Below, in pieces: positions 18,688 to 64,000 of a DNA stretch of 64,000 nt. The translations under genes were made by a program, and so were the position numbers. This stretch comes from Candidatus Omnitrophota bacterium (lineage in GTDB: Bacteria > Omnitrophota > Omnitrophia > Omnitrophales > Aquincolibacteriaceae). The notes below the pieces were generated by a model, which saw only the letters and a list, made by a program, of their open reading frames with translations, was not told the DNA's origin and did not search any database. Where the stretch lies: assembly GCA_030698625.1 (NCBI GenBank), contig JAUYMS010000017.1, positions 12,962 through 76,961 on the forward strand, in the 5' to 3' direction. How positions within the stretch are numbered: position 1 is the stretch's first letter; the number at the start of each line of letters is the position of its first letter.

Positions 18688-18693
18688 CGTTAT

Positions 18694-19224: not shown

Positions 19225-19225
19225 C

Positions 19226-19471: not shown

Positions 19472-19478
19472 GATACGG

Positions 19479-19487: not shown

Positions 19488-19516
19488 GTCACTGATATCA
19501 TTCTCACAGGAGGTGA

Positions 19517-20212
19517 GTGAACATGGATCAGAATAGAGATAAGTCATTTTCAGGAGCGAGTTCGGAAGCCTTGACCCAGACCTTCATGCAGCGGGTCTAT
19601 CAGTGGATGTCTGCGGGGCTGGCACTTACGGGGTTTATCGCCTATTGGGCTTCAGGTAATGTGAGCCTCATGCGCTCCCTGCACGGCGGTGCCTTTATCG
19701 TTTTGGTTTTAGTGGAGCTGGGCATCGTTTTTTGGCTTTCCTCACAGGCCATGCGTATTTCAGCGACGGCCGCAACAGCCGGATTTTTGATCTATTCGGC
19801 GTTGAACGGGTTAACTCTCTCCTATATTTTTATCATTTACACATCGGCCTCGATTGCCTCGACCTTTTTTATCACGGCCGGCACCTTCGCCGCTGTCAGT
19901 CTCTATGGCTGGACCACTAAGCAGGATCTCACCTCGCTCGGCGGTTTCTTTATCATGGGCCTGATCGGCATTATCATCGCAAGCGTAGTCAACATGTTTA
20001 TGCGCTCACCCCTATTGTATTGGGCCATCAGCTACATCGGCGTGGGGTTATTCATCGGCCTTACTGCCTATGACACGCAAAAGCTGAAGAACATTCATCA
20101 GAGCAACCCCGGGGCTCCGGATCAATTGGCCATTTTGGGCGCGTTATCGCTGTATCTCGATTTTATTAACATGTTCATCTTTCTGCTGAGAATATTCGGG
20201 AGACGCCGTTAA
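19517..20212 (+). CDS. Bax-inhibitor-1/YccA (TMBIM) family membrane protein
   Basis: 231 aa with 7 predicted TM helices and the family C-terminal block GALSLYLDFINMFIFLLRIFG. Confidence 0.85.
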   Translation: MNMDQNRDKSFSGASSEALTQTFMQRVYQWMSAGLALTGFIAYWASGNVSLMRSLHGGAFIVLVLVELGIVFWLSSQAMRISATAATAGFLIYSALNGLTLSYIFIIYTSASIASTFFITAGTFAAVSLYGWTTKQDLTSLGGFFIMGLIGIIIASVVNMFMRSPLLYWAISYIGVGLFIGLTAYDTQKLKNIHQSNPGAPDQLAILGALSLYLDFINMFIFLLRIFGRRR

Positions 20213-20775
20213 TTCGTCTTAGAAAGTCGTCGCCGAACCCGCATGGCTGCCAAGCCACCCAGCATGAGAGCCAGAGTGCCGGCCTCAGGGGTTTGAGGGA
20301 TCTTATCGTAATCGATATCCAGACGCGATCGAATAAGCTCAATTTTTTCTGAGTTGAAAGCCGTCTGCTCTGAGAGCCCAACCAGAAAACTCTCGCTGCC
20401 CGACTCTAGCAAAGTTTTAAGTAAACCCACATCCAAAGACCAGGTATCGGTGCGGCCGGCAGCGTCGCTTTCCAGAAGTGTCCCCAGAAGAGTGCCGCTT
20501 GGGGTCGTCGCGATCCAGATTTCCCGCGTTGGGCCCTCGTTAAGATTTCCCTTGTGGGTGAGACTGAGCTCGACCGAATGGATTTTTGCCGCCTGCGGAA
20601 AGGCCGTCAGATCATGGGCGTAGGTGTAATTGATCTGATTTCCGGACAACGTATCAGTCACGACAAGCGGTCCCGAAAAATCTAAGGCATCGAAGAAAGT
20701 TACGGCGTAAGCCGGTGTAGAGGTAGCTAAAGCCACGGCGGCAAGCAGGGCCGCAAGTGTAAGTGTTCGGTTCAT
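20209..20775 (-). CDS. Secreted PEP-CTERM-anchored protein (exosortase substrate)
   Basis: Signal peptide MNRTLTLAALLAAVALATSTPAYA. C-terminal PEP-CTERM-like sorting signal IPQTPEAGTLALMLGGLAAMRVRRRLSKTN. The ATG at 20773-20775 has an AGGAGG SD; the ORF-track start at 20868 is probably too long. Confidence 0.75.
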   Translation of the reverse strand: MNRTLTLAALLAAVALATSTPAYAVTFFDALDFSGPLVVTDTLSGNQINYTYAHDLTAFPQAAKIHSVELSLTHKGNLNEGPTREIWIATTPSGTLLGTLLESDAAGRTDTWSLDVGLLKTLLESGSESFLVGLSEQTAFNSEKIELIRSRLDIDYDKIPQTPEAGTLALMLGGLAAMRVRRRLSKTN

Positions 20776-20959
20776 GGGGATCCTCCTCATGAGGGGTTGT
20801 GAGGAAGAATCACGATCCGACAGGAATACCCTCAGATGCAAGAAACACGCCATGGTGTATAAAGACAAAATTTTAATTCATTAATTATCATAAGCAACTT
20901 CATCAAACCTACTTAGGGAAAAGCTCAAAATGCCGACAATCGCATAAGGATATGTTTGT

Positions 20960-21706
20960 ATGTCTATGTCGCTAAACACTTTGACGAAAAAAATATACTT
21001 CGGATTCCTGTTGCTCACGGGTCTACTTGCGCTTAATGCTTTACGGGTTCAGGCAGAAACCGCGAAGTCTCCCGAGACGATTGTCATCGCCGGCGTCGAG
21101 CGAGTGCTTGAAAAATTCGAAGACGAGCATCCCAAAGACAAATCAAAAGTCATGTATACCTACTACACGGATGGAGGGAGGCCCGTTTTGCAGGGAACCT
21201 TTATGCGTTGGTCGAGTGGGGGGGAGAAGATATTTGAAGCCCGGTACGAACAAGGGAAACTCAATGGCAGAGTCACTGAGTGGTATGGATTGGGCGAGAC
21301 AAAGTCCGAGGTCGATTACGTCGATGGAGAGAAGCACGGAAAACGGCAGGACTGGTTTCAGGGAGGCGAGAAATCGACGGAAATTGACTATATCCACGAC
21401 GAAGTGCAAGGGAAAGTTGTCCGCTGGTACCGGTCGGGCCAGATGGAGTCCGAGGCCCCCTATGAGCTGGGGCTGTTGAATGGGACATGGACGGGCTGGT
21501 ATGAAAACGGAAACAAGAAATTCGAAAGAAACTTCAAAAACGGCCTCAGGCAGGGAAAATCCATCCGCTGGTACGAGAACGACGATAAGATGTATGAGAC
21601 GGATTATGATAACGACCAGCGTCACGGTAACCACCTCTGGTGGGACGAGAACGGGAACCTCGTCAAGAAGGTTCAGTACAGGGACGGCAAGCTCATATCC
21701 TCCTAA
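20960..21706 (+). CDS. Secreted MORN-repeat protein (YwqK-like)
   Basis: Signal peptide followed by multiple YxxGxxxGxxxxWYxNG MORN-type repeats (WYGLGETKSEVDYVDGEKHG, WYRSGQMESEAPYELGLLNG, WYENGNKKFERNFKNGLRQG...). Confidence 0.8.
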   Translation: MSMSLNTLTKKIYFGFLLLTGLLALNALRVQAETAKSPETIVIAGVERVLEKFEDEHPKDKSKVMYTYYTDGGRPVLQGTFMRWSSGGEKIFEARYEQGKLNGRVTEWYGLGETKSEVDYVDGEKHGKRQDWFQGGEKSTEIDYIHDEVQGKVVRWYRSGQMESEAPYELGLLNGTWTGWYENGNKKFERNFKNGLRQGKSIRWYENDDKMYETDYDNDQRHGNHLWWDENGNLVKKVQYRDGKLISS

Positions 21707-21985: not shown

Positions 21986-23980
21986 ATGTCTAAAAATACG
22001 TCCATTCTTTATCCCTGGATAAAGTTAATTGCCACAGTGACCGTGTGTCTGTTTACGCTCAACACAGTTGCTTGGTCCGCACCCACAGTCCCACAGGCCA
22101 ATATCACGCTTAGCGCACCGTTCAAGTCTCCCGAAATCAAGGACCTGTCGTTACTCGAACGGTTTACGATTCCGCCTCATCTCGGCAGTATCGAAGCGAT
22201 CCATATTCCGCAAGACATCAGCGAGCGCATGGCTTCGCCGACAATCATTCACATTCAAGACGCCCACACCAGCCTCGAAGCCCAGATCAAGATGAAGGAA
22301 TTGATTCACTACCTCCACGAAAAGCACAATTTTGATCTTATCCTGGTGGAAGGAGGCCAGGGTGCGCTAGACGCAGAACGACTCGATTTCTTTGACAACC
22401 CGGCATTAAACCAAAAGGTCGCAACCGATCTCGCCCAGAAAGGGGAAATCGGCGGCGCGGAACTCTATCTTCTAGAGAACCGTGAACAGGGAGCTGAGGT
22501 CGTCGGTGTTGAAGATGACCGGCTGTACTGGGAAAACCTGGCCGCGTTTCGGCGCGTGCTAGCGGGACGCGATAAGTCAGATGATTTTCTCGACAATCTC
22601 AAAACGAGTTTAGGCTCTTTGAGCTCTCTGTACTTCAGCCCCGAGCTGCGCGATTTTACAAGGGATTGGCTGCTCATCCAAGATTCAACCGAAAAGACGA
22701 TTCAACGTTTAGGCGTTTTGAAGAAAGCCGCCCTCGGCCACCTACAGGTCGATCTCGACAATGCCGCCGAACAGAAATCATGGCCGTATTTGGTGCGCTT
22801 TTTTAAAGTGAGAGAGCTTGAGCGCGCGCTGGATTTTAAGCAGGCCGGTATGGAAAAAGGGCATATCGTAGAATGGCTAGCAACGCAGAAACTCGATAGC
22901 TATTGGGCCGAGGGCCTTCAATTGCTCTTTGATGAGGGCAATCAAAACCCGACAGACCCCAACGATGTCCGCAAGAATCCGCGGCCTTTCTTGGAGCGCT
23001 TTTACCAGGCGGTAAAACCGCTCGGTTTTAACTTTGACAAGTACGAAAACTTTGGGCGATACCTCGCTCTTGTAACCCTTGAGCGTGAGATTGATGCCTC
23101 TGCATTCTTTCGGGAAATCCAAAACCTGACAAAGAAAATTACCGTGAGTCTCGCGCACAGCGACGAAGCCGGTCGCCTGGTTGAGTTGCTAGAAGACTAT
23201 CAGCTATGTAAGAAACTGTTTGGCCTGGAACTTACGCGCTCAGAGTTTTCGGCGATCCAGAAATCCCGGGATAAATACCTCCCCCGCGCCATGGCGGACC
23301 GCGCCCTCGCATTTGATAATGGCAGGACAAAGCTGACGTTTAATTCCCTCTCAGACCTCGACGCGCTTTTCCGGTTGGTACTCCGGTTTTACGAAGGGAC
23401 GATGCAGCGCGATATGGCGATGATCGAAAACGCCATGAGCGTCATGAAAAGCAAGAAGTCGAACAAGGCCATACTCGTGACCGGCGGATTTCACAGCGAA
23501 GGGCTTCGCGGACTCTTTGAAGAAAAGGGATTCGCTTACGCGCAAGTGGCTCCGAGAATCTCAGAACTCAATTCGACCGTGAACTATCACGACGTGATGC
23601 AGGGGAAAATCGATGACGTCCTCCTGCAGAACTCACAATTAAAGAGCGCGTTGTATCTAATAGCGCGTAGTAACGTGCGCCCGGAGCGGGCGATTCGAAT
23701 TCTTCGCGCGGCCGGCTTTCGGCCACAGGACCTACTTAACATCCCCGCTGAAAACATCCTCTCCGATCCGAGAACAAGAGCCCTGCCGAATGGAGCGCAA
23801 CGCGACTTAGCGCTTCATTTTCTTAGACTTCAAGTCGCGCTTTATCAGGAACTCAAACAGGCCGAATCCGTAGCCGCGGTGCTCAGTGGACGCACTCAGC
23901 GCACCGCGGACGGATTCGGTTCCGCAGAACCCAGATTTGCCCGTTCCGTAACAGGTGTGGTCACACAGTGGGTGCGCTCA
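21986..23980 (+). other. Shared N-terminal module (copy 2)
   Basis: Hydrophobic leader MSKNTSILYPWIKLIATVTVCLFTLNTVAWSAPT. Conserved blocks IIHIQDAHT (about 22243-22270), GGAELYLL, WPYLVRFFKV, and VTGGFHSEGL (about 23470-23510). Confidence 0.6.
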
Positions 23981-48510: not shown

Positions 48511-50253
48511 GTGCAGAAGGACTATAGTTATTTCCAGAGAGTGGTTGCGCTCGTCACGGCGCTTGTCTTCTTTACGACAAGCGTGGTCGAGTGGAGCTAT
48601 GCCTCTGCGGCCCCTACTCCCGAGACCCATCTTCAATTCATTTCCGAGCTCGGCATCCCTGCCGATATTGCGACTGTCCGCGATAGCTTCGGTGACTTCT
48701 CCGAAAAGGGGGATCATGTCTTCGTCATCGAAGACGCGCATACCAACTATGATGCCCAGACCAATACCAAAGCCCTTTTAGAATACCTGCAGACGAAACT
48801 CAATATTCACCACGCCTATGTTGAGGGCGCAGCAGCACCGCTTGCACCTGAGCGCATCCGCTTTTACGAAGACGAGGCCACCAATGTGCGGCTCGCCGGG
48901 GAATTGGCAAAAAAAGGCGAAGTCACGGGCATTGAACTTTTTCTGCTTGAGCATGGAAATCATTTCCAGGCTAACGGTGTTGAAGACCTCGGCATGTACG
49001 CCGAAAACCTGGCACTTTACCGCCGTGTCCTTGGGGCAAAGGCCGAATCCGTAGAGCTTTTGAAAATCCTGCGATCGCAAACGGAGCGCATCATCAGCCG
49101 TCTTTTTGGCGCCCGGCTGCGCGAGATCGTCAGGCAGTGGATGGCCTTTCGTGAGCAGCGCATGGATCTCGACCAGTGGATACCCGAGCTCGAACGCGCG
49201 GCGCGGGATTTAGTGCATGTTGATTTTGAAGATCCTATGGCACAGCTCAAGTGGCCGCAGCTGGTCCGGCTCTATCGGCTGAAGCAATTGGAGCAGGATA
49301 TTGACACGGAGAAAATGGAGCAGGAACTCATCCGCGTCGAGGTCTTGATGAAAGCCGCCGGTCAGGAAGGGCTTGCGCAGGAATTTAGACAGCTGCTGAC
49401 CGTCGAGGGCGAACCGGAGTTACGCTTACGGCGTGCCATGGAAGATCTTTACCGGCGCATGCAACCCCTGGGATTTTCTTTCAACGCCTACCCCGCGCTC
49501 CGGAATTTTACCGCGGTCACTATTTTCCGCCGAGAGATGAACGCCCTCGAGATGATGACGGAACTGGAACGGCTCGTCGATACTCTCATGGAAACACTTG
49601 CCGTAACGGATGCTGAAAAGGAATTCCTGCCGTTCATCAAACGTCTTTACCTTCTCGAGAACGCCCTCACACTGACGCTTACGCGTGAGCAGTGGGATCA
49701 GCTGGGTGACGAAGTCCGTCCCGAGGCCCTGCTCGACGAATTGTCTCGGCACAGCAGAAACCTGGCCATCGAGGGACTTGATGAAGAATCCTTGAACAAA
49801 CGGTATGCACGCGTCTTTAATCTGACGGAGTCGGTCAAACGTTTCTATGAGACGGCGCGCGCGCGTGAAAGAGTTCTGGTTAAAAACACCCTTGCCGGGA
49901 TGAAAAGCGAGGGGATTAACAACGCAGTCATGATTGCCGGGGGGTTTCACACCGACGGCATTGCCGCGCTTCTTCGCGAGGCCGGAGTGTCGCACCTCGT
50001 CCTCAGCCCGAATATTCGCAATATCAAGGATGATGAGCAGGACTACTACTGCATGATGACGGGGCGCTGTGATACGGCGGTGCCCGTGCTGCATACCGGA
50101 TTAAATAGTGCGGCGATTCATCGCGAATCGGCCGGCCTGCGGGCTTACCGCTATCGACTTAGGCGCATCGTGGAGACCATAGTGGGATTAGGAATCGGCT
50201 CGCTTGAAGACGACCGGGAACGCGTTTTGCGCTCTTTCGGACTCCTGGCCGAC
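48511..50253 (+). other. Shared N-terminal module (copy 3)
   Basis: VFVIEDAHT (48714-48743), GIELFLLEH, WPQLVRLYRL (about 49250), IAGGFHTDGI (about 49927-49965). Ends at RSELR 50254-50268. Confidence 0.6.
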
Positions 50254-53200
50254 CGTTCGGAACTGCGGGATCAACCCGTACCTACCGATGCCGTTGAAGA
50301 CCACCTTATTAAACCTGTCCTGAATCGCCTGCAGGCCTCGCATCCGGATGTGGCCGCGAACCTAAAATTGAATATTACTTTTGAAGGAGAAGCGAATATT
50401 TTTTGGGCAAAAAACATGACGAAGCCGGTTGCGATTTACAGTGAGGTCCTCGATATTGGCCCGAGGACCGCCTCGCTCGCCATTGATAGCCGCCTGAGGA
50501 GTGCTTTTATCGAGGCGAGCAACAGCGGAAATCCTCTCTTTGCAGCTGCAGCTGAGGATGCCCTGCTACTGCTCGTGTTGAGAGAAGCGATCGCCTTAAA
50601 CAGTCCCCACGTATCGGATACCCTCAACTTGCCTGTGGCGATCGCTTTCACTTCCTTTCTCGAACAAAGTATGAGCTTTAAAGAATTGAGCAGCCGGCTG
50701 GCTTTAGAACATGTGTCTGATTGGGAAGATTATTTCAAGCAAGTGATAGGAATTCTGGATGCGGCGGCCCCGGAGTTTCGTCTTGCGACTTTACATCGAT
50801 TGTGGATGGAGCAGGCAGCCGGACATCAGACACTGGGAGACATAGACGAGATCATTAACTTCGTCAGTAAAGAAGGCGGTGTCGACATGGGAAGCGATGT
50901 CGTCACGATGACGGTCTCAGAAGGCCTGGCAAGCGCTTCTGCGAACAGAAGGGCCGTGCTCGAATCGCGTAAAAGAATTCTGCTCAGAGAACTCGCGGCC
51001 ATGCAACAGGGGCCTGCGCGGTTCCGAGGAGTCGGTTCTCTGGTTCCGTGGGACCTTCCGGCCGAGGATGGGTATAACCTGGCCGGGGAACCCCAGGGCC
51101 TGTTTTCTCAGGACGGAAAGTATGTCGCCCTCGGTCTGCGCTATGAGCAAGGAGACTCGGGGCTTTCCGGCGTTAGCGATGGTGATCTGGTCACCGAAGG
51201 GGCGAGCAACGGCATCATGAACCAAGTGGTGCTTTACGGCGTTTTGCATGATGCACAAAGCCATATCGTAGACGATGTGCGGGAGTATCGAACGATTCCG
51301 GCGGAAGCACTAACGCGCTTTGCGGAGATCACCGGTCTTGTTATGTCATCTGACAATCAACTCTTGGTCGTCTCCGGTCCTGCGCGCGACGGGGGTAAGA
51401 CTCTCGTTTCCGTTTTTAATATCAGCGGAAAATTGCAACTCAAAGACGGTCAGGCGGTTGATGGTGAGGTCTACGATGAACTCAGAACTTTGGAATTCGA
51501 TGAGACGCCTGATTTTGTCGAGATCGCCGCCGATAACTATGCTCTCTTTGTCGGCCTCGGTAAAGAGCTCAGACGTTATGAATTTATCATGGACGAAGCC
51601 GAGATCAGCGGTTTGAAGGCACCGGTTATCGGTAAGACGGCAACCTATGAGGTTAAGGCGGCGGCGGAGATCCCCGAGGCCGTTCCGCTTCTCGCGCGGC
51701 TAAAATTCGTCGAGGGGAAGAGCCCGGAGCTTTCACTGCGGCACGACGGGAATGTGGCCGAAGCCATGATTCAAATGCTGAGTAGCATTCCGATTGCTGC
51801 GCTTTCGGACGGCAGTGCCGTGCTTGCTGTTTCTGCGAGCAAGGCGCTCATGATGGGACTTCAAGCAGAAACGGTCGGCTCCTTGGCTGTCGCGGAGGCG
51901 ATTCAGGCCCGGGTCCGGGTCATCGAAACCGAGATCGCGGCAATTGATGCGCCTCAGCGCTCGGAGCTCAGGACGGCGGATTTTGATCCCGAAAAGCACC
52001 CTGCGACGATCGAAATCACCTCCTATTACACCTCCCGCGATCATTTGCGTATGGCCTTGGCCATCGGAAATGCCGAGCTCTACACCCAAGCGCTCGGCGA
52101 GTCTATTCACTTTGCCAAAAAGGCTATGGATTTAATCGATCACCGCGGAGAAGTGCAAACCATTGTCAGTTACCTCAGGACCAAACAGGATGTGCCCTTT
52201 CAGCGCGACACAATCGGCGATACCTTTGAGATCACACGAGTGCAGGAAGACAAATTTTCCCGTGAGGAGCAGGAGATGATCGAAGTCGAAACCCAGAAAT
52301 TTCTCAAGGCCCTTGGGTTCCAAGGCAGTGTCGCCGAGGATCTGGCGCGCGAAATCATGCTTGTGAGTTATCCTTTGAGCCTCGCGAACATGATGCCCCC
52401 TACCATTGAGGGTGCGGAGTTTCAGCCGGAAATGACGCGTGAAATCGGCAAGAGTTTGCATCAATTTGTGTTTGCGGAATCCCTAACTTTGGGCGGCGCC
52501 GTCGTCGTTAACCCCTCCCTTGCCAAAGATATCACCATTCAGATTCTGCAAAAGAACGATCCGATTGCTTTCAAAGGGTCCTTTCTTCATGAGGTCGTCC
52601 ACTTTCTGGCGCTTAAGAATGCGCTTCCCTTCGATGTGAGCCGCGAGCTTGTGACGCAGGCAATCACGACCGCCGTTTTTCTTACGGAGGCGGGCAGCCT
52701 GGAGCCCATTCTTTCGCAGATCCCCGAAGACATGCAGGAGTGGCGAATTCTCTATGAAACCGTCGTGAGTTGGGGCGAGACCGCTGCCGAACAGGGGCAT
52801 CGCATCAAGCGGCCGGAAGAACTCGATTCGATGGTGCGTGATTTTATTGAAACCCGCGTCCCGGAGATCATGAATATGCCTTATGCGAAATACAATGACT
52901 TTGTCGATCGTTTGAGCGGTGTCTATCTGGGCGCTTTTGCCGCCAAGACGAAGGCCCTGGATCCTAAAACGAATCTTTATAAATTCATCGTCGACTACGG
53001 CATTCGCCACCTGCCGCGCGTGAGGAACAATGCGTTTACCCGCAGCCTGACGCAGCGCGACCACGCCTTTATTCAAGAAGTCATGAAAACGCTTTCGGCG
53101 GTTGCACAGGTTACGATTCCCGACGGCCGCATTACTTTCAAAGAGCAGTCGATGAAGGAAACGCAGGAAAGAGGGCTCGGCCGTATGGTCTATGATGCTG

Positions 53201-56200: not shown

Positions 56201-59200
56201 ACCAGGACCTGGATCGCAGTCCGCTTTATATCGAAGGTGAAGCAGGAACGGCGAAGAACAAGAAGGTCTACTATGCCGCAAAACTATTACGCAAAGCCAC
56301 GCGATACATGGCGATGCACGATGACATTCACGATGACGACCTGACGGAAAGACGCGGCGTGAATGAAAAGGAAGAAGGTAAGACCGACTGGATCCCTTCG
56401 CCGTTAGTCGAGGCGATGATGAACGGAGATTGGATTATTCTCGATGAGGTCAACAAGGCGAAGACAACGGTTCTTCAGAAACTGAACCAGATCATTCAAT
56501 CCCGCCGCGTGGTACTCCACGACGGAACAGTGGTGACGGCCAAGCCGGGATTTGCGGTCATCATGATGGCCAATCCGCCGCCGAGTTCCGGGGATGCAAA
56601 GGTTTACAGCGTACAAAAGATCTCAGCCGAGATCATGGACCGCCTCCGTTACATGAAGATCGACTACCTGCCGCGCCACGAAGAACTGCAGTTATTGTTC
56701 CATATCCTCATGAAGAAGCGCGGCTTAAAGACCGCAAGTTCGATCCCCAACGTAGACAAAGAAATGGTGCGGAAATTAGTGGACGCGGCGCGTATCATTC
56801 GCGAGAGATATGAGGATGTCGATCCGGCAACCAACTTGAGCCGCGGTCGGGGAAAAAAAGTGGCCCGTCCGTTTTCGACACGCGCATTGGTCAATATCGT
56901 CGAGCATATTGCGGCATATCCCGAAGAAAGAGACCGGATTCGTTCGGTCATCAAACGCTTTTATTCGTATGAGTGGGAAAAGGACGATCAGGTCAGAAAG
57001 GTCGAAGAGGCCTTGAACAACAAGCTGCCGCGTTTTGACGAGCCGTATGTGTTTTCCGACGGCGATTTGATGGGGCCGAAGTATTCGACAAACGCCGAGG
57101 GAAAGCGCGTGTTGGAATTTGCAGGCGTCCAGGTGGAACTCGGGGAACATGCGCCGCTCGGCATGGACGATGTCCCCCTTGAGATGCGCCTGACATGGAC
57201 TTCGAAAAACCTGGAGTATCTGCGCCACATGATGATGGACCTAAGGGCGGGCAATCACATGCTGTTTATCGGTGAGGCCGGCACGGGAAAAGACACGATC
57301 GCAGAATACGTGACTTACTTGACGCATGGCCCGGTGGTGGAAACCTTCGGGGTGACGAAGAATGCAATGGCCGAGGACTTTATCGCCTATGTCGGTTTGG
57401 GCGAGGGTGAGAAGGTCGCCAAAGACGGGTTGGTCCTTGCCGTGGGTAAAAATGAAACAGGTCTCGTGCCGTCGTATGTGGTGCGCGCCATGTTGGCCGG
57501 ACGGCCGGTGATCTTGAGTGAAATCAACAAAGGGAAACCGGAGGTATTCGCGGCACTCAATAATATTTTGGAATACGGGTGGATCGATCTGGCCAACGGC
57601 CGTCGTGTCCATGCCGAGCCCGGTTTTGTGATTATCGGTACGATGAATCCTCCGAAACGGCAGTACATGGGGAACTACGGGCTCTCGGGAGAATTTATCG
57701 ACCGGTTCTCGACCTATAAATTTGATTATCTGGAGAGGGATCAGGAAGTCGATATCCTGGAAGATTTTAATCAGTATATCAGGACGCTTCCGGACCGGAA
57801 TTTCTACCGGTTAAAACGGGAGTTCATCGAGAAAATTACCGATATGGTGCGGATCCTGCGCAGGAGATACGACGACAACGAACTGCCGCACCCGGTGTCG
57901 ATGCGTGCCCTCAAACGGCTGATCGTGACGTTTGCCGAGTATCCTGAAATCTATAAGGCCGAGAAGAAAGATACCGAAAAACAGACGCCGCTCGAGAAGG
58001 CGATCCTCAGCTCCATTTTCTTCCACGACCCGGTTCATCAGGAAGAGGTGTTGAAGGCGATGAGGGCTGCCAATGTGAAGGGGCTGCGCGACATTGTGGA
58101 GTTTGATGTCTCGACCGGTTCGCAGGTCCTGGATGCCGCTTTTCAGCAATTGCGCTCGAATCTCGGAAGCATCGACTCCATGATCCGCGCCCTGGCCGAG
58201 TTTGACCGGTTGATTGAAGACAATAAGGATAAAATCCCTCCGGCGATTTTCAAGAAGGCACAGCCGGCGTACCGCCATTTGGTGGCTAATGAATTTCCGC
58301 CGAAGTGGGGCGAAAGCCAGCTAGCCGACGCGGTGGTGGTGCATGTGCTCCAGCGCCTTGGCGGTGAATTAGCACTACCGGTACTGCCGCCAATTAACCG
58401 CGAAGTGCTGCGTACGGGGCCACTTGATCTCGCGGCGCATCCGGAATTCGGGGTGAGGTTTATCGGCGACATGGTGCAGGGTATTGCCGAAGTTACAGGT
58501 CAGAAGCAGGACGCCAGGTTCCTGAAGATCGCAGGTAAGGTGTTTTTGGGGTTGAGGAAGGGTTTTTCGGCCAAACAGATCGTGCGGGCCTTCGAACGTG
58601 ACGGCCTGAAACTTTACGGGACCGAGCGTACCGGGGATAGCAAGGGTGGGGAATACTTCGCGGCATTCTTCGGTTTGGCCAAGGATGTGCAGGATGCGGT
58701 GCGCAGCAATACGGCGATTACCGAGGTGGCCAATTACGAGGCACGCATTAAAGTGCTCGGGTTATCTCAGGACTGGGTGGATGTATTCGCCAAGCTGAGC
58801 CGTCCGGCGGTGAACCCGGTTTTGGCGAAGACCTGGCGCGATCAATTGATTACGGCCGTTGATCTCTCCAAACGCGACCGAATAGTCCGTCTTGCGATTC
58901 TCCTGACGCTTCAGATTCTCTTTAAGAATAGCGACCGCGTCTTTATGGATCAAGTGGTCCGTGAACGTATCAAGATTCTCTCGCGGTCCGAATTGCGGTC
59001 TGACGAAGACTCACAGCCCCAACAGCATCTTTCGATTTGGCCCGTTCAAGGGAAGCCGGCTCCGTCATCGGGCTTCGTTCCGGTAGACGAAATTGACGTC
59101 AAGCTGGTCCTATCGGCTGCCCTGAAGGAACTTCGCACTCAACATTTTGCTCTTTATCAAAACCTCTGGACGGAGATCAATGCCGAATGGGGTCCGAATT

Positions 59201-62200
59201 TTCTGTGGGTCGAAGGGCTGCCGGCGCCGGCCATGGTGTACGCACATGAACTGGACGGTGGCGATCGCGCGACGGTTTTTGCGCTTGATGTCGGCCTCAG
59301 AGGCTATCTTGAGAAGGCTTACTCGGAGAAAAACGAAAAGCGCAAAGAAGCGGCGACGGAATTCCTGCTTATGCTCTTAATCGGGGAAGCGGCTTCGCTT
59401 GAGGGACGTCCTATGAAGGAAACCCGCACGCCGGATTTAAAAAATGATTTACTCGCCGCGCTTACTGTTGCTAAGCACTTCTACAGTGTTCCGTCTCAGG
59501 CGCCAGTGCAGCAATCCGCTCTTTTTGCCGTGGTCAAAGAAGGAAACCGGTTTGTCTTTAAGCGAAGCGACGGACCCGCCATTGATTTGTCGCGGGGGCT
59601 CGAGGCGGTAAACGGGGTCCAGTTTACGGTCAACGAAGGCGGAGAGCCGCGGGTCCATTTTCACGGATCAGGCCAGGGCGTTTGGGGTCTCTATGACCAG
59701 TTTGGGAGAAAAGTCGGCCCCTTTGAACAGATCGTGCCGTGGCCTGTTGAATATCCGGTTTCTATGCGTGATGGGAAGGGCGGTATCCAAACCTATTTCT
59801 GGGTATTGCAGGATGGGCAATGGATTTTGTACAACCAGGACGGCGTCATCGGCGACGGCCTAAACGACTTAAAAAATACCTTTGCTCACGTTGAAAGGCC
59901 GAGACTCTATGAGAACGAGAACGGCGATCCGTATATCCTTTTTATAGGGCAACCGGCGGGGAGTAACTGGGGCCTCTATTCGGTAACGCAATCCGAAGGT
60001 CAGGGACCTGTGGTGACTCTTTTTCAAGGTGGTTTTGACAGCCGGCGCCATAGGGACTTTGATGAGAAGGAATCCGGTGTCGGTTATCCACAGCCACTTC
60101 GCCTGCCGGACGGCAGACGCAGTCTCGTCGTGCAGAACAATCTCCAACTGATCTATCGAGGGGCCGCTCTCGGTGAAGAGGCGATCTTTCACAATCGAAA
60201 AACCGTTAAAGCCGGCTTTGAAGAAACCGGGGAACCCCACCCTGCTGCGGATTCAAAAGGCAGGATTTACACCTTCTTCCGGGCTAAAGAAAAGAACCCC
60301 GCGGAACCCAATGAGAAAGGGTTATGGCGTATTTACAATAATGCGGTCCCTGTGTCGGCGCCGCTGGCTGAGATCGGCGAGCCGGAGCCCTTTTTTGACA
60401 AACAGGAAGGAGCGCATGCACTCTATAAAGGAAGGGCTGCCGGAGACGATGCGCCCTGGCACCTTTATCAAGACGGCATGCCCCTAACCAAAGCTTATGA
60501 AGAAATCGGCGATGTACGGGTCGTTGTGACTCCGGATAAAGAGGTGGCGATTATTTTTGCCGCGAGGACTTCGGAATCGTGGGGTGTCTATCAGCAGAGT
60601 CCCGGCGCGGAGCCCGGTACGGAGGTCCTTCATGAAGACGGTTTTAGCAATATCCGCCACTTGACCGTTGCCGTTGATGAGCGGGGCACCCGGCGTATCT
60701 ACTTCACCTCATTGAATGATACGACCTGGGCCGCTCATGTTGACTTTCGCGCTGTGTGGCATGGTCCCGAGGAACCCTCCGCGGCGCGGGTGATGCACAC
60801 CGATGACGGAAATGTGGATTTCTATTTTGAAGCGGCATATTCGGGGCACAGGGCCCTATTTAACGGAGACGGAGAGATCGCAAAATCATTCGGCACGCTG
60901 CTGGATGCCGTCGTGGCCTTTGAAGCCGTGAACTTTGGACGCGAGGAAGGTGCCGTCCAAAAACTGAAACCCGAAGAGCGGGGCAAAAGAAGGCGGGATT
61001 TGCTGGCGGCTCTTCTTAAAGAATTAGGCGAACGGCCCGCGGCAGCGCATATGACCCAGTTACTCCAGGTGTTACGCCGCTTCAGCGGCGAGTCTGTAAG
61101 CGGTGAGGCCGGCATCACGGCGCTCACCGACCATCTTTTCACTCAGCCGGCATATCAGAAAGCATACCAGCGTACCGGGCAGGATGTCATGGCGACTATT
61201 CAAGAGGTTGTCGCTGAGAACCGGAAACGCTCTGAACTCCGATCAGACGGCCCGAAGGAGCCGAAGATTGCGCCTGTCGACGAAATTAATATCGAAATGC
61301 TGCGAGGGGCGCTGGATGTATTGAAGGCCAAGAACCCTGATGTCTATGCCGATATCGACCGTGCCGTCTCTTCGCAGTACGGTAAAAGTTACTTATGGGT
61401 GCAGAACATTCCGGGCATTGCGGCCCTCTATACGGACACCCTGGATGACGGCGAAGTGTATTCTTCGCTCGGGATCAACGTCGCGTGGAGGGGACTCATC
61501 GAAGCGGTGTACGCGTCGTTGAAAGTAGACGCAATGAAGGACTTGGATTATTTCCTCTATCTCGTGCTGCTGCGCGAAGGCCGCAAGCTACGCGGCGGGG
61601 ATTTCAACGAGACGATTACACCGAATCCCGCTCTGGAATTGAGGGCGTTCCTCAGCGCCGCAGACGGGTACTTCACATTGGGTTCCGGAGCGACGGAAAG
61701 GCATATCGTCATGGCTCAGGTCCATGCGGAAAACGGAAAACACTTTATTCGTACGAGCGACGGTCAAACCCTTCAAGTTGAATACAACCTGCAATTGGAC
61801 GACATCAAAAATCTTATGATGGCGATCGATGATGTCGGGAATCCGCATCTTTTTTACACGGGCCAGCGTCCCGACGGAAAAATGAGCCTTTATGACAGCA
61901 ATGAGGCATTAGCCGAGGCATATGATGAGATCAAATTTGCGGCCGGCCCCATCGACCGAACGGGATTCGTACAGGCCTTTTATTTCGGCAAGAGGGACGG
62001 GAAGTGGGCCCTGTTCCGGAACAAAGAACATTTGATCTCGGGGCTTGAGGGTGTCGGGGCTGCACGCATTGCCCTCGATAAACGAGGGGATACGCATCTC
62101 TTTTTTACCGCATTGAAGGGCGGCGTTTGGCGGCTCTATCGTGATGGAGAGCTCTACTTCAAGGATGCCGAAGAGGAGCTCGCCGATACCGATGAGCCGG

Positions 62201-64000
62201 ACATGTCAACGCCGGAGGCGCGGGGGCGCGCGCTGCGGGCCGCCGTTGAAGAAACCGCCGCAGGACGGGTGATAAGAGATGCCCTGGAGAATATGGGCAT
62301 CACCTCACCTAACCCGGGAGAATCCATGCTCGATGAATTTTCGGGCGGCCCTATCGATGATGACCTCGCCTTCCAACTCTTAGAGGACTTAGAGGGCGGC
62401 GCCGCTGATGAGCATATCCTTATCCCATTCGAAGAATTAGACGCGGAGCCCGATTTCGAAGAGGTGCCCGCAGTTACAGGGCCCGAATTGGCCCTTGCGC
62501 AGAGAATGGAAAAACAGATCCTTGCGATTCTGAACATCCCCAGCCCGACTCGGGCGGCCGTTCTACAGGACCTAGTTGAAAAAATCGCAACGCTGCTGAA
62601 CCCGCGCATTATTGCGCGAGTTCCGGAATCGATTCTCATTAACATCTCGGGGCGCTTACAGCGGGCACAGGAAACACCCGGTTTTAAGAAATATAGCCGC
62701 GCGCTTCAGGGCATGGTGGACAAAGTGAAAGCGAGGCTGGAAGAAGTCAAAGCGGCAAAACGGACGGCTGGCGAAAGGAGACCCTCCGCCGGGGCGGTCC
62801 TTGCCGGCGCAAGCGCGGCCCTAACCCGGGGAATCGGTTTGAAGCCGAATCGGCGACACATTTTTGCGGTCGAGACGATGCAGGACGGAGACGACCGCAC
62901 CCAGGTTTTTATTGCTGCCAGGGTGCAGAATGGGAAGGTCAGCCTCTTTCGGGAAACGACGCGCCTCGTTGCGGAAGTCGATAAGGTGCAAGATATGATA
63001 ACCGTCGCCGACGGTGAAGGAAATCCGCACCTCATTTCCGTCGTAAAGCGCGGAGTGAACTCGGTGCTTTATCTGGATTCTGATGAGGTCAAGGGAGACT
63101 TTGAAGAGGTGGGGCATGTCGCACCTCTGGTGGATAAACGAGGCCGAGTGCAGGTTTACTTTACGGCGAAGAAAAACGGGACGTGGGAGCTTTACCGAAA
63201 TGCAGTCAAACTGATGGCGAGCGCCGATGATATTCAAAAACCGGTGGTCCTGCTTGACGGAAACGGCAATGAACATGTCGTTGTGCCGCGCGCCTCCAGG
63301 ACGACTTCCGTCGAGATGATCGATTTTCTCATCCAAACACGGCCGAAAACTGACGAGCCGGCCGAAGAAGAACTCTATAACGAAAAACAGGTCCTCGCGA
63401 GCGGCTTTAAGAGATTCGGAAAACCGGCCGTGGGGCTGGATACGAACGGCAGGATCCGCATTGTCTTTACCGGGACCAAAGAAAAGGGGAGCGGGTCCGA
63501 TCGCACCGAAGTCTGGAGCCTCTTTGACGGTGAAAACGAGATCCTCAAAGGGAGTGCGTTCATCGGTGACCCGGTCGCTGCGAATGATAAAACCGGGAAA
63601 TTTATTTATTATTATGTCGCCAAAGAGACGGGTTTTATAATGAGAAGCGAAACGTATGCCCTCTATAAGGACGAGGGGTACGGCCCCGTGAAGACGGCGG
63701 CGGGATTTTCAGACATGCAACCGCCCGTGCTCATTCCGGCGGCGAGGGGAGGAGTCGAAGGTTATTTTACCGGCCGCAAGAAGAGCGCCTTCGGTATCTA
63801 TGATGAAAGTGGGGCCCTCGCCAGGGGTTTCGGAGAAGGGCTCGTCGAGGTTGCCGGTATGGGTGCGGATGTCGTGACGCGGGATGACACGGATACCCAG
63901 AAAACGGCCGCAGACACGCTCCTGCTGCGGCAGCGCGTGCAATCGTTGATCGGACGTCTAAGACCCAAAGAGATGCACGCAGGCTGGAAGACATTTTTTG
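48511..64000 (+). CDS. Giant multidomain protein 3, 5' partial (more than 5163 aa; continues beyond the window end)
   Basis: Open in one frame from the GTG at 48511 to position 64000; the frame was verified at six widely spaced points. The N-terminus VQKDYSYFQRVVALVTALVFFTTSVVEWSYASAAP...HVFVIEDAHT aligns with genes 1 and 2. The alternative TTG at 48415 is less likely. Confidence 0.85.
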   Translation, partial: MQKDYSYFQRVVALVTALVFFTTSVVEWSYASAAPTPETHLQFISELGIPADIATVRDSFGDFSEKGDHVFVIEDAHTNYDAQTNTKALLEYLQTKLNIHHAYVEGAAAPLAPERIRFYEDEATNVRLAGELAKKGEVTGIELFLLEHGNHFQANGVEDLGMYAENLALYRRVLGAKAESVELLKILRSQTERIISRLFGARLREIVRQWMAFREQRMDLDQWIPELERAARDLVHVDFEDPMAQLKWPQLVRLYRLKQLEQDIDTEKMEQELIRVEVLMKAAGQEGLAQEFRQLLTVEGEPELRLRRAMEDLYRRMQPLGFSFNAYPALRNFTAVTIFRREMNALEMMTELERLVDTLMETLAVTDAEKEFLPFIKRLYLLENALTLTLTREQWDQLGDEVRPEALLDELSRHSRNLAIEGLDEESLNKRYARVFNLTESVKRFYETARARERVLVKNTLAGMKSEGINNAVMIAGGFHTDGIAALLREAGVSHLVLSPNIRNIKDDEQDYYCMMTGRCDTAVPVLHTGLNSAAIHRESAGLRAYRYRLRRIVETIVGLGIGSLEDDRERVLRSFGLLADRSELRDQPVPTDAVEDHLIKPVLNRLQASHPDVAANLKLNITFEGEANIFWAKNMTKPVAIYSEVLDIGPRTASLAIDSRLRSAFIEASNSGNPLFAAAAEDALLLLVLREAIALNSPHVSDTLNLPVAIAFTSFLEQSMSFKELSSRLALEHVSDWEDYFKQVIGILDAAAPEFRLATLHRLWMEQAAGHQTLGDIDEIINFVSKEGGVDMGSDVVTMTVSEGLASASANRRAVLESRKRILLRELAAMQQGPARFRGVGSLVPWDLPAEDGYNLAGEPQGLFSQDGKYVALGLRYEQGDSGLSGVSDGDLVTEGASNGIMNQVVLYGVLHDAQSHIVDDVREYRTIPAEALTRFAEITGLVMSSDNQLLVVSGPARDGGKTLVSVFNISGKLQLKDGQAVDGEVYDELRTLEFDETPDFVEIAADNYALFVGLGKELRRYEFIMDEAEISGLKAPVIGKTATYEVKAAAEIPEAVPLLARLKFVEGKSPELSLRHDGNVAEAMIQMLSSIPIAALSDGSAVLAVSASKALMMGLQAETVGSLAVAEAIQARVRVIETEIAAIDAPQRSELRTADFDPEKHPATIEITSYYTSRDHLRMALAIGNAELYTQALGESIHFAKKAMDLIDHRGEVQTIVSYLRTKQDVPFQRDTIGDTFEITRVQEDKFSREEQEMIEVETQKFLKALGFQGSVAEDLAREIMLVSYPLSLANMMPPTIEGAEFQPEMTREIGKSLHQFVFAESLTLGGAVVVNPSLAKDITIQILQKNDPIAFKGSFLHEVVHFLALKNALPFDVSRELVTQAITTAVFLTEAGSLEPILSQIPEDMQEWRILYETVVSWGETAAEQGHRIKRPEELDSMVRDFIETRVPEIMNMPYAKYNDFVDRLSGVYLGAFAAKTKALDPKTNLYKFIVDYGIRHLPRVRNNAFTRSLTQRDHAFIQEVMKTLSAVAQVTIPDGRITFKEQSMKETQERGLGRMVYDADKHVIYYLPWDIVEFGKDASVGHLLQEIFRYQHTYDGEIEEAYDHTAFRLLFSVAESARVVALGLAEFPERLIDIEAFYERKLRILDLEIEKDRMAEQPKFVQYVEGLFYALAKSGDPENPEWDPRIVTDIVKEALNDTFAVVAEAMAAEGPTAGRYFYEVIRDQVWPVVERLLELDKKEALEQELENQTMSQMIENGDFEIVEAPPSEGEPSPMPLPPGAKLKINISPGSTAGAIDMKDLSPEARAALEEAMKKFMENMDDEQKKKFEEAARQALENSLEDAVDGMAPITSGMDGELPGQGKFKPGRGSPQVPGRGDVSTDALGELYQDLEEAEDQANRISQQADAIEAEAARVIQEALDAARQAAEIDREGEGDKAKALEMEKALAGLAQQLKNLRAEANRFHDMADDVEAKIDDVRDDPDLDQDQVQEIRDRVDDLQGKALEIDDDAAGADKDGQQAVKSGDEMKDMMERDPDRTNFIKGRAKRVQETLEDAKGRLDEVQKDAQEAAAQSGDLKGETRAMRQGVVQNAPMEVEESPVPDISVDDGLEDAPGEGGVGAGGGDPGGHIKIKMPNRSRPGKKRRRKQAQKKGLQPEKVRKHTVDPRVAESLRELLQDEAFQAPEKPFDIDDFYTATEPGDVSPDQRHIYDMIRNLSRSHEATIRDAILSVLDELESTEDIPRQKKGRLDGRRLAVVDSGIKDINKRKVTPDAPVVRVSILIDVSGSMFSDVNNLQVIPPVSDEYLEQALKTKNRITNAVRTALLFMEAFRNEERVELEIGLFAARQKIILRFGEEITDAKAYEVIRTILNHGLGGDNTDLAGLQMMVNSQREREAEMGPASKIVVIIADGGINYTDALGLQTTMQNNTDMAFLPRGIGPASANVKGAYAPFGKEVDDVTKLAKGLGDDVLNEIERLRPTGGDDRSELRVMHPVIVRPERFETDNFKVVREGKDEFLVVKGGRYPTFKAKVDKGGRNVPDEDLYETETNVADVVQIIKHVRNQDLDRSPLYIEGEAGTAKNKKVYYAAKLLRKATRYMAMHDDIHDDDLTERRGVNEKEEGKTDWIPSPLVEAMMNGDWIILDEVNKAKTTVLQKLNQIIQSRRVVLHDGTVVTAKPGFAVIMMANPPPSSGDAKVYSVQKISAEIMDRLRYMKIDYLPRHEELQLLFHILMKKRGLKTASSIPNVDKEMVRKLVDAARIIRERYEDVDPATNLSRGRGKKVARPFSTRALVNIVEHIAAYPEERDRIRSVIKRFYSYEWEKDDQVRKVEEALNNKLPRFDEPYVFSDGDLMGPKYSTNAEGKRVLEFAGVQVELGEHAPLGMDDVPLEMRLTWTSKNLEYLRHMMMDLRAGNHMLFIGEAGTGKDTIAEYVTYLTHGPVVETFGVTKNAMAEDFIAYVGLGEGEKVAKDGLVLAVGKNETGLVPSYVVRAMLAGRPVILSEINKGKPEVFAALNNILEYGWIDLANGRRVHAEPGFVIIGTMNPPKRQYMGNYGLSGEFIDRFSTYKFDYLERDQEVDILEDFNQYIRTLPDRNFYRLKREFIEKITDMVRILRRRYDDNELPHPVSMRALKRLIVTFAEYPEIYKAEKKDTEKQTPLEKAILSSIFFHDPVHQEEVLKAMRAANVKGLRDIVEFDVSTGSQVLDAAFQQLRSNLGSIDSMIRALAEFDRLIEDNKDKIPPAIFKKAQPAYRHLVANEFPPKWGESQLADAVVVHVLQRLGGELALPVLPPINREVLRTGPLDLAAHPEFGVRFIGDMVQGIAEVTGQKQDARFLKIAGKVFLGLRKGFSAKQIVRAFERDGLKLYGTERTGDSKGGEYFAAFFGLAKDVQDAVRSNTAITEVANYEARIKVLGLSQDWVDVFAKLSRPAVNPVLAKTWRDQLITAVDLSKRDRIVRLAILLTLQILFKNSDRVFMDQVVRERIKILSRSELRSDEDSQPQQHLSIWPVQGKPAPSSGFVPVDEIDVKLVLSAALKELRTQHFALYQNLWTEINAEWGPNFLWVEGLPAPAMVYAHELDGGDRATVFALDVGLRGYLEKAYSEKNEKRKEAATEFLLMLLIGEAASLEGRPMKETRTPDLKNDLLAALTVAKHFYSVPSQAPVQQSALFAVVKEGNRFVFKRSDGPAIDLSRGLEAVNGVQFTVNEGGEPRVHFHGSGQGVWGLYDQFGRKVGPFEQIVPWPVEYPVSMRDGKGGIQTYFWVLQDGQWILYNQDGVIGDGLNDLKNTFAHVERPRLYENENGDPYILFIGQPAGSNWGLYSVTQSEGQGPVVTLFQGGFDSRRHRDFDEKESGVGYPQPLRLPDGRRSLVVQNNLQLIYRGAALGEEAIFHNRKTVKAGFEETGEPHPAADSKGRIYTFFRAKEKNPAEPNEKGLWRIYNNAVPVSAPLAEIGEPEPFFDKQEGAHALYKGRAAGDDAPWHLYQDGMPLTKAYEEIGDVRVVVTPDKEVAIIFAARTSESWGVYQQSPGAEPGTEVLHEDGFSNIRHLTVAVDERGTRRIYFTSLNDTTWAAHVDFRAVWHGPEEPSAARVMHTDDGNVDFYFEAAYSGHRALFNGDGEIAKSFGTLLDAVVAFEAVNFGREEGAVQKLKPEERGKRRRDLLAALLKELGERPAAAHMTQLLQVLRRFSGESVSGEAGITALTDHLFTQPAYQKAYQRTGQDVMATIQEVVAENRKRSELRSDGPKEPKIAPVDEINIEMLRGALDVLKAKNPDVYADIDRAVSSQYGKSYLWVQNIPGIAALYTDTLDDGEVYSSLGINVAWRGLIEAVYASLKVDAMKDLDYFLYLVLLREGRKLRGGDFNETITPNPALELRAFLSAADGYFTLGSGATERHIVMAQVHAENGKHFIRTSDGQTLQVEYNLQLDDIKNLMMAIDDVGNPHLFYTGQRPDGKMSLYDSNEALAEAYDEIKFAAGPIDRTGFVQAFYFGKRDGKWALFRNKEHLISGLEGVGAARIALDKRGDTHLFFTALKGGVWRLYRDGELYFKDAEEELADTDEPDMSTPEARGRALRAAVEETAAGRVIRDALENMGITSPNPGESMLDEFSGGPIDDDLAFQLLEDLEGGAADEHILIPFEELDAEPDFEEVPAVTGPELALAQRMEKQILAILNIPSPTRAAVLQDLVEKIATLLNPRIIARVPESILINISGRLQRAQETPGFKKYSRALQGMVDKVKARLEEVKAAKRTAGERRPSAGAVLAGASAALTRGIGLKPNRRHIFAVETMQDGDDRTQVFIAARVQNGKVSLFRETTRLVAEVDKVQDMITVADGEGNPHLISVVKRGVNSVLYLDSDEVKGDFEEVGHVAPLVDKRGRVQVYFTAKKNGTWELYRNAVKLMASADDIQKPVVLLDGNGNEHVVVPRASRTTSVEMIDFLIQTRPKTDEPAEEELYNEKQVLASGFKRFGKPAVGLDTNGRIRIVFTGTKEKGSGSDRTEVWSLFDGENEILKGSAFIGDPVAANDKTGKFIYYYVAKETGFIMRSETYALYKDEGYGPVKTAAGFSDMQPPVLIPAARGGVEGYFTGRKKSAFGIYDESGALARGFGEGLVEVAGMGADVVTRDDTDTQKTAADTLLLRQRVQSLIGRLRPKEMHAGWKTFF
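53690..54800 (+). other. Long acidic coiled-coil region followed by a Gly-rich and highly basic stretch (KKRRRKQAQKKG, about 54930-54965)
   Basis: Heptad-like, E/D/A/K-rich sequence with low complexity (…DAIEAEAARVIQEALDAARQAAEIDREGEGDKAKALEMEKALAGLAQQLKNLRAEANRFHDMADDVEAKIDD…). Confidence 0.5.
55320..55900 (+). other. von Willebrand factor A (vWA) domain with a MIDAS motif
   Basis: VRVSILIDVSGSMFSD (the DxSGS MIDAS at 55363-55377) and a later IVVIIADGG strand. Confidence 0.6.
56180..56640 (+). other. AAA_5 / MoxR-like ATPase domain 1
   Basis: Walker A IEGEAGTAKN (about 56236-56262); Walker B-like WIILDEVNKA (about 56436-56460); VVLHDGTVVTAKPGFAVIMMANPP. Confidence 0.6.
57200..57700 (+). 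other. AAA_5 / MoxR-like ATPase domain 2
   Basis: Walker A FIGEAGTGKDT (about 57271-57300); Walker B VILSEINKG (about 57508-57534); HAEPGFVIIGTMNPP. Confidence 0.65.
59600..64000 (+). repeat. Array of at least 15 degenerate repeats of about 45-50 aa, each ending in a G-x-W-x-L-Y(R/N/Q) motif (putative beta-propeller blades); interrupted by RSELR at 61228 and an acidic linker at about 62180-62480
   Basis: Examples: DKRGDTHLFFTALKGGVWRLYRDGELYF; DKRGRVQVYFTAKKNGTWELYRNAVKL; DTNGRIRIVFTGTKEKGSGSDRTEVWSLFDGENE; QGVWGLYDQFGRK; SNWGLYSVTQSEG; ESWGVYQQSPGAE. Confidence 0.55.

Follow-up and report, generated by a model that had tools for sequence, protein, structure and literature searches.

A rare repeat of about 42 residues predicted to build beta-propeller-type domains in a giant protein of an Omnitrophota bacterium

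This report deals with a stretch of 64,000 nucleotides (nt) from a Candidatus Omnitrophota bacterium (contig JAUYMS010000017.1), referred to below as the window, and in particular with an array of degenerate repeats of about 42 amino acids (aa) encoded near its 3' end. The window contains three giant open reading frames (ORFs), and the array is in the third of these, giant gene 3 (g3). ORF analysis places the repeat region within a single + strand frame, which has no stop codon between nt 48406 and the end of the window (5,198 codons). Translation from a GTG codon at 48511 agrees with a deposited protein, P0001 (NCBI MDP3919639.1, 5,493 aa), at 5162 of 5163 residues, and the sole mismatch is the GTG start. 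P0001 is encoded on an 80-kb contig and is annotated as 'MAG: AAA family ATPase [Candidatus Omnitrophota bacterium]', where MAG stands for metagenome-assembled genome. Because P0001 is 5,493 aa long and matches the window frame, the window cuts g3 330 codons before its stop. Amino acid numbers in this report are those of the open frame (nt = 48406 + 3(n-1)), and P0001 numbering is n - 35.

The g3 protein starts with a hydrophobic signal or anchor and has no second hydrophobic segment. Pfam finds AAA_5 with an E-value (E) of 7e-39 in two stretches at about aa 2605-3120, which are of the MoxR type, together with weak matches to VWA and VWA_2 (E 0.0035, under their cut-offs). AAA_5 ATPase modules and a possible VWA domain thus occur in the same protein, as in the MoxR AAA+/VWA context, and the repeat array lies downstream of all of them.

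The repeats form three blocks, A with about 10 units, B with 3 and C with 6-7, and they are distributed over two modules, all on the + strand. Module 1 begins with the pentapeptide RSELR (58984-58998), which together with the following head domain of ~175 aa, the second of its kind in g3, occupies 58984-59508 (aa 3527-3701). Next come a starter hairpin (QQSALFAVVKEGNRFVFKRSDGPAIDL..., 59509-59616), in which the AlphaFold2 (AF2) model has strands at E13-18 and E21-26, and block A (59617-60900). The latter consists of nine clear units and one long degenerate one, recognized from matches to a hidden Markov model (HMM) of the repeat and from the AF2 and Foldseek results given below; its units start at aa 3738, 3784, 3832, 3873 (degenerate), 3944, 3993, 4037, 4085 and 4127. 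A linker of 109 aa (60901-61227, aa 4166-4274), which has no match to the repeat HMM, connects module 1 to module 2, and the AF2 model becomes helical where this linker starts (H471-480).

Module 2 begins with the RSELR at 61228-61242 and head copy 3 (together 61228-61695), identified by BLASTP and a two-sequence HMM. These are followed by a starter hairpin that aligns with the starters of the other blocks (ERHIVMAQVHAENGKHFIRTSDGQTLQV..., 61696-61818), by block B (61819-62181), with units starting at aa 4472, 4512 and 4553 that are matched by both the g3 HMM and an independent one, by a non-repeat insert (62182-62847), and by block C (62848-63840). The insert, 237 aa in all, is acidic in its first part (62182-62475, 27 D/E versus 5 K/R in 98 aa) and non-acidic in the remainder, and it matches neither the repeat HMM nor any Pfam family. 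Block C has its own starter (NRRHIFAVETMQDGDDRTQVFIAARVQNGKVSLF...) and 6-7 partly degenerate units, with starts at aa 4868, 4905, 4946, 5007, 5056 and 5104. The HMM matches are at 4905, 5007 and 5114-5117, with weaker ones at 4827 and 5069, and BLASTP aligns block C with the blocks of two relatives, P0002 and P0006, at E 2e-16. The beginning of a post-repeat linker takes up the rest of the window (63841-64000). In the full-length P0001 this linker leads to a sixth RSELR and a C-terminal domain of ~270 aa that ends in -TAIAA, and there are no more repeats.

The two modules are homologous over the head and the first units (aa 3527-3820 versus 4275-4548, 28% identity, BLASTP E 1e-17). Since blocks A and B each follow an RSELR head, and C is downstream of B in the same RSELR-delimited segment, the array is part of repeated head-plus-propeller modules. 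We also considered that blocks B and C might join across the acidic insert into one ring like that of block A. This arrangement was discarded because block C has its own starter, and block C looks autonomous for the same reason.

This anatomy changes several points of an earlier, sequence-only reading of the window. That reading had the repeats run to the window edge and form the end of the protein, whereas they stop at about nt 63840, about 160 nt short of the edge; with no repeats in the 330 codons beyond the window, and with a linker, an RSELR and a C-terminal domain still to come, the array is not the protein's end. The RSELR at 61228 had been taken as an interruption of the array and is instead the start of a module, because it opens a 197-aa non-repeat head domain after the 109-aa linker. 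The acidic linker placed at about 62180-62480 does exist, but it is only the first part of the longer insert.

Several lines of evidence concern the repeat itself. Within the last ~1,440 aa of g3 the motif W-x-[LIVAM]-[YFH] is found 11 times, versus once in the first 3,700 aa. An HMM seeded on these sites and iterated on g3 found 14 units, and nine of the 11 seed units kept scores above zero when they were left out. A second HMM, made from the repeats of P0002 and P0006 only, matched g3 at E 7e-32 in 15 stretches, eight of them at E<0.01, versus 1 match at the same threshold among 200 composition-preserving shuffles of the region. In the reciprocal search with an HMM made from g3 only, P0002 had 14 units and P0006 about 15 (E≤0.01). 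In BLOSUM autocorrelation, block A shows a maximum at lag 49 (z 4.7), and blocks B and C together show maxima at lags 41 (z 6.0) and 83 (z 5.8). The periodic repeat in the C-terminal quarter of g3 is therefore real. The units are 40-49 aa long, with a mode of 41-43, slightly shorter than the 45-50 aa given in the earlier reading. That reading counted at least 15 units; there are about 20 if degenerate ones recognized by eye and by the AF2 strand pattern are included. Individual units are only 15-35% identical to each other, and a mixed triple-repeat alignment was too divergent for a pattern search. The repeat was not found in the other two giant ORFs or in any other frame of the window.

The family consensus is P-x-L-I-V-D-G-x-G-x-V-Q-V-Y-F-x-G-K-x-x-x-K-W-G-I-Y-D-x-x-G-x-x-L-x-x-G-F. 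We predict that each unit is a four-stranded antiparallel meander, in which strand 1 would be P-x-h-h-h-D, followed by a D-x-x-G turn, strand 2 x-h-x-h-Y-F-x-G, strand 3 x-W-G-h-Y-D and strand 4 G-x-x-h-x-x-G-F. The conserved positions are Gly, Asp and aromatic residues, and no conserved set that looks catalytic is apparent among them.

Structure prediction agrees with this picture. The AF2 model of block A, calculated from an alignment of 7 rows, has a mean predicted local distance difference test (pLDDT) of 72.4 and a predicted TM-score (pTM) of 0.65; it is all-beta with 3-4 strands per unit, and its pLDDT is about 90 over aa 3944-4150. The model of an 8-unit block of P0002 (its block 2) is better, with a pLDDT of 84.9, a pTM of 0.83 and, according to DSSP, 4 strands in each of the 8 units. 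When these models were compared with the Protein Data Bank (PDB) by Foldseek, the top 50 matches for both were all beta-propellers, with probabilities of 0.99-1.00, including GH43, prolyl oligopeptidase, sialidase, TolB, WD40, YVTN, NHL and cd1/NirN propellers. The best TMq values of the P0002 model, 0.41-0.43, were to the 8-bladed cd1/NirN domains and EMC1 (PDB 1h9x, 6rtd, 8s9s). Two other features also resemble a propeller. The length of the tandem units falls within the 40-50 residues typical of beta-propeller repeats, and each unit forms the four-stranded antiparallel sheet of a blade in the P0002 model and a sheet of 3-4 strands in block A. A conserved starter of 2-3 strands precedes every block, and with one extra terminal strand the P0002 block has 36 strands (8x4 in the units, 3 in the starter and 1 at the end), equal to 9x4, an arrangement that may allow velcro closure. 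Propeller-type blades are thus well supported by the models. The strand count suggests nine blades in the P0002 block; going by the number of units, block A would have about ten blades and block C about seven.

Relatives of the region are few. An exhaustive HMMER search with aa 3527-4600 against 1.84 billion representative proteins gave only seven proteins at E≤0.001, and P0001 itself was recovered. Only two other protein clusters in this search carry the repeat. One, which comes from a JGI metagenome, is represented by P0002 and by P0008, a longer member of the same cluster; the other is represented by P0006, from an Omnitrophota MAG (HNV87195.1 / JAKQXH010000066.1). A third carrier came from a pattern scan of contigs: L004 (metagenome contig Ga0209515_10000824, 1-10309) has a giant ORF of at least 3,436 aa, open across the locus, that encodes, in order, ClpA/B-like AAA and AAA_2 modules, a starter hairpin and three repeat units before the contig ends. 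The repeat is cleaner in the relatives, where it has a period of 42 and reads P-x-L-I-V-D-G-x-G-E-V-Q-V-Y-F-x-G-K-K-x-x-K-W-G-I-Y-D-K-T-G-R-P-L-A-E-G-F. Their blocks have 8-9 units and occur as tandem pairs, with the same starter ahead of each block; the starter element, P-N-x-h-Y-x-F...G-k-a-h-h-x-g-S-D-G, is found ahead of all repeat blocks of P0002/P0008, P0006 and L004, just as each of the three g3 blocks opens with its own starter hairpin. All of the carriers found are giant proteins, and g3 and P0006 are from Omnitrophota. A scan of viral contigs did not find the repeat, and a search of genome and metagenome contigs with the last 400 aa of the window returned nothing. Within the reach of these searches the repeat is confined to a small number of giant proteins, of which at least two belong to Omnitrophota.

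What the remaining proteins, P0003, P0004, P0005 and P0007, have in common with g3 is limited to the head domain or the protein core. P0005 is a true homologue of g3, 35% identical over 2,643 aa, and is without the repeat. WD40-type units come after the head in P0007 and in P0003, where there are seven (Pfam WD40 E 3.5e-21). The head-then-propeller module is thus conserved, with the blade family swapped, and the positional analogy favours a propeller at the corresponding place in g3.

The catalogues of protein families do not cover the array. The C-terminal region of 1,467 aa has no Pfam match and no NCBIfam match at E≤1, and blocks A, B and C match no Pfam propeller family, even at E≤10 (WD40 (PF00400), PD40/TolB, YVTN, Kelch, PQQ, BNR, SBBP, NHL and FG-GAP were covered). 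The sequence-only reading had seen no resemblance to WD40, YVTN, PQQ or Kelch and had named BNR, SBBP and TolB for comparison, and neither group is matched. Sequence searches of the PDB with the region, the repeat profile, P0002 and the head profile returned chance matches only (a lipocalin hairpin, AGR3 and UCH-L3). The repeat is effectively an uncatalogued sequence family, in that no catalogued model covers the whole unit. The earlier suggestion that it is a new repeat family thus holds as to cataloguing, but the repeat is probably a distant cousin of the WG-type repeats, with which it probably has the W-G-h-Y-D-x-x-G hairpin in common; this relationship is drawn from the hairpin and from a faint, partial match of the cleaner relatives to DUF7055, which is discussed below.

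The context of the repeat is more surprising than the repeat itself. A head domain of ~150-200 aa occurs three times in g3, each time directly after an RSELR (50278-50706, 58984-59616 and 61228-61818, the last two counted with their starters). Copy 2 is 28% identical to aa 4275-4405 (BLASTP E 1e-17), and the two-sequence HMM finds a further copy at aa 625-767. The head has no match in Pfam or, by sequence searches, in the PDB, and homologous heads are present in P0003, P0004, P0005 and P0007. Its invariant residues are W, G and E...L. The heads of the relatives carry L-L-V-H-E-x-x-E-L, whose His has been lost in g3, and in P0003, P0005 and P0007 the junction motif is (V)SSR(L/I/A)G.K in place of RSELR.

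Exact RSELR is present 13, 13 and 5 times in the three giant ORFs, a total of 31 sites in the window that span 2203-61242 (for example, 2203, 23981, 37736, 50254, 58984 and 61228). From composition 0.05 sites would be expected; there are essentially no near variants and no copies in other frames, and two copies are present in P0008, which is from another metagenome sample. The 31 sites are encoded by 28 different 15-mers, so RSELR is conserved at the peptide level, and a DNA-level element, which we had also considered, is ruled out. The sites coincide with module boundaries, and the segments between them, 173-1,337 aa long, often contain one recognizable enzyme. RSELR is thus a candidate processing or docking signal. 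The cleavage points of Omnitrophota giant proteins have been stated to be unknown (bioRxiv 10.1101/2023.11.21.568195), and a literature search for RSELR matched only the software name varSelRF.

Taken as a whole, these observations are best explained if the array forms three beta-propeller-type domains from a rare, uncatalogued blade repeat of ~42 residues, which would serve as docking platforms; we consider this reading likely. The starter hairpin and the last strand of a block would probably close the ring. Docking platforms are the most plausible function since the conserved positions look structural and no catalytic-looking set is apparent, and so we predict that the domains are rigid platforms for partner proteins or ligands and not enzymes. 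They may be client or adaptor modules of the AAA+/VWA remodelling part of g3 and, should RSELR prove to be a processing site, could be set free as individual proteins. The repeat and AAA+ modules occur together in two independent giant proteins, g3 (AAA_5 twice) and L004.

Some points weigh against this reading. The TM-scores to solved propellers are low (≤0.29 for the block A model and ≤0.43 for the P0002 model), so the support covers propeller-type blades and not ring closure or blade number. The AF2 alignments held only 7 rows. The number of units per block varies (3, 6-7, 8, 9 and ~10), which is unusual within one propeller family, and block B with its 3 units is unable to form a standard ring alone. 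The co-occurrence with AAA+ modules in multi-domain giant proteins may be incidental, and the docking role is one that we infer. The two or more beta-propellers that the earlier reading foresaw are borne out in part: there are three blocks, and the models of block A and of the P0002 block are all-beta and of the propeller type.

Four other explanations should be weighed. The periodicity could have been a chance or compositional artefact, or the stretch could have been non-coding or mis-framed, as the low identity between units, several of which can be discerned by eye only, might suggest. However, the frame has 5,198 open codons and a translation identical to that of a protein already deposited, the motif is concentrated in the array, and the same repeat is present in three other proteins of other samples; the independent and reciprocal profile results have already refuted this explanation, and its probability is practically nil. 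A more serious alternative is that the array is a divergent member of the catalogued WG_beta_rep (PF14903) or DUF7055 (PF23157), with nothing new at the family level. P0002 and P0008 score 44.2 and 28.9 bits, over the DUF7055 whole-protein cut-off of 27.6 bits, a six-fold concatenated family consensus scores 58 bits against DUF7055 and 30.7 bits against WG_beta_rep, and by eye the K-W-G-h-Y-D-x-x-G-x-x-h-x-x-G-F half of the unit resembles the WG hairpin. The scores of P0002 and P0008, however, exceed the cut-off because weak partial matches are summed: they cover only positions 10-29 of the 66-position model, and no individual stretch is significant. The concatenated consensus also matches the unrelated Caleosin, CT021 and tRNA_anti-codon families, and so its scores are inflated by repetition. 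The window protein has no DUF7055 match at E≤10, and WG_beta_rep (gathering cut-off 25.6 bits) matches neither blocks A, B and C nor the P0006 block at E≤10, nor full-length P0002 and P0006 at E≤1. Finally, the P-x-L-I-V-D-G-x-G-x-V-Q-V-Y-F half has no counterpart in either model. A literature search on DUF7055 returned nothing. On balance, membership in one of these two families is very unlikely.

The other two explanations accept the repeat and differ as to its shape or its purpose. The units might build an open, non-toroidal beta array, such as a superhelical or solenoid-like stack of four-stranded meanders, in place of closed propellers, and the low global TM-scores to every solved propeller and the variable unit number, including a 3-unit block, would be in accord with this. 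WG_beta_rep, the nearest motif family, was listed in a 2021 survey among the repeat families without known structure (PMC8078820), and therefore its topology offers no guidance. An open array is nevertheless quite improbable, given that the top 50 fold matches of both models are all propellers with the best TM values to 8-bladed rings, that a pTM of 0.83 for the 8-unit block indicates one compact domain, and that 36 strands are a multiple of four with the 3+1 ends typical of velcro closure. Alternatively, and in line with the binding or adhesion end proposed in the earlier reading, the array could form the tip with which a secreted surface protein adheres or binds. Beta-propellers often bind ligands. 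In addition, the N-terminal signal or anchor is the single hydrophobic segment of g3, and attachment to prey has been put forward as a role of the giant proteins of Omnitrophota (bioRxiv 10.1101/2023.11.21.568195). On the other side, the array is not terminal, as about 350 aa, including an RSELR and a distinct C-terminal domain, follow it, and two AAA_5 modules and a weak VWA match are on the same polypeptide. ATPases of the AAA_5 type need ATP and are expected in the cytoplasm. Pfam and NCBIfam gave no match to any adhesin, lectin or carbohydrate-binding family, and we regard an adhesive tip as distinctly unlikely.

The docking reading has a bolder extension, namely that the three giant ORFs are operon-like polyproteins that are cut at RSELR. 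If so, the segments aa 3527-4274 and 4275-5255 would come free from g3 as separate proteins. Their propellers, of a blade family restricted to the lineage, would serve as clients or adaptors to be docked by the VWA/MoxR-type AAA+ segments that lie immediately ahead of them in g3. This extension is doubtful at present. If it were true, RSELR would be the first processing signal to be defined in the giant proteins of Omnitrophota.

The other two giant ORFs resemble g3 at both ends. All three begin with a hydrophobic signal or anchor (445-800, 21986-22350 and 48511-48800), after which comes a domain common to all of them, marked by the motif (I/V)(H/E)(I)QDAHT.(Y/L)(E/D)AQ ('IQDAHT..EAQ.N'), and all three end in an amphipathic helix terminating in -AA (SSAA, AAAA and, for g3 beyond the window, IAA); the C-termini of giant genes 1 and 2 (g1 and g2) are at 13450-13536 and 48230-48319. 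The complete relatives P0002/P0008, P0004 and P0005 likewise end in -AA. The g1 gene (445-13536) encodes 4,363 aa with a HAD hydrolase as the only match. The g2 gene (21986-48319) encodes 8,777 aa with enzyme-like units between its RSELR sites, including an acyltransferase, a response-regulator receiver, an HD domain one RSELR-delimited segment further on, a complete UDP-glucose dehydrogenase (N, central and C domains) that begins 9 aa after an RSELR, and a PPDK_N with a PEP-utilizers domain.

The interval between g1 and g2 (13760-21706) contains ordinary genes. They encode an M24 peptidase (- strand), a transketolase split into N and C halves, a gamma-glutamyltranspeptidase, a NUDIX protein and a Bax1-I protein, as well as a 219-aa ORF of unknown kind (- strand) and, immediately ahead of g2, a MORN_2 repeat protein. 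Within g3, an HExxH motif is present at 52588-52602 (aa 1395; S-F-L-H-E-V-V-H-F-L-A); the segment that contains it, 1,337 aa long, is bounded by the RSELR sites at aa 1185 and 2522. The motif has no Pfam match and could belong to a zincin-type protease, which would make it a candidate processing protease. Two antisense ORFs (62154-62645 and 62821-63336, - strand; 163 and 171 aa) are inside the repeat-coding region; many comparable antisense ORFs exist within all three giant genes, and they are taken as spurious.

In a wider sense, the repeat would be one more sequence family among the many that build beta-propeller blades, a docking domain of an ordinary kind with a very rare sequence. Its description is of value for annotation, as the region is now labelled 'AAA family ATPase' or 'hypothetical' and is without a covering Pfam model, and the RSELR-started modules beside AAA+ machinery provide concrete domain boundaries for Omnitrophota giant proteins.

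Several known systems invite comparison. WG_beta_rep and DUF7055 are, like the repeat described here, bacterial tandem beta repeats of unknown function, and they share with it the K-W-G-(I/L)-(Y/I)-D-x-x-G-x-x-h-x-x-(G/Y)-(F/D) hairpin. However, the WG_beta_rep unit has 35 aa versus about 42 aa here, only 20 of the 66 DUF7055 model positions are matched, and the extra half of our unit, noted above as being without a counterpart, would supply two more strands. The WD40-type propellers of P0003 and P0007 have the same order of junction motif, head and a block of beta repeats of about 42-50 aa, with predicted four-stranded blades, but the repeats have no detectable sequence relationship (the hhalign probability of the repeat profile against the P0003 units is 0.6%) and the unit numbers per block differ. 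The cd1 nitrite reductase, NirN and EMC1 propellers give the best global superpositions of the P0002 8-unit model (Foldseek probability 1.0); the sequence identity, however, is 10-14%, the haem d1 ligands are absent from the repeat, and TM values below 0.5 imply that the blade number or geometry probably differs.

A functional analogy can also be drawn to midasin (Rea1) with its UBL-WD40 clients Ytm1 and Rsa4, and to the systems in which a MoxR AAA+ protein works with a VWA partner. The comparison has its limits: the g3 parts are all on one bacterial polypeptide with 2 AAA modules versus 6 in midasin, the VWA match is weak, and the head has no detected similarity to UBL. With these differences kept in mind, g3 would resemble the midasin and MoxR-VWA systems in bringing together a dynein-related or MoxR-type AAA_5 ATPase, a VWA/MIDAS-type domain, an acidic stretch and small-domain-plus-propeller modules in one system.

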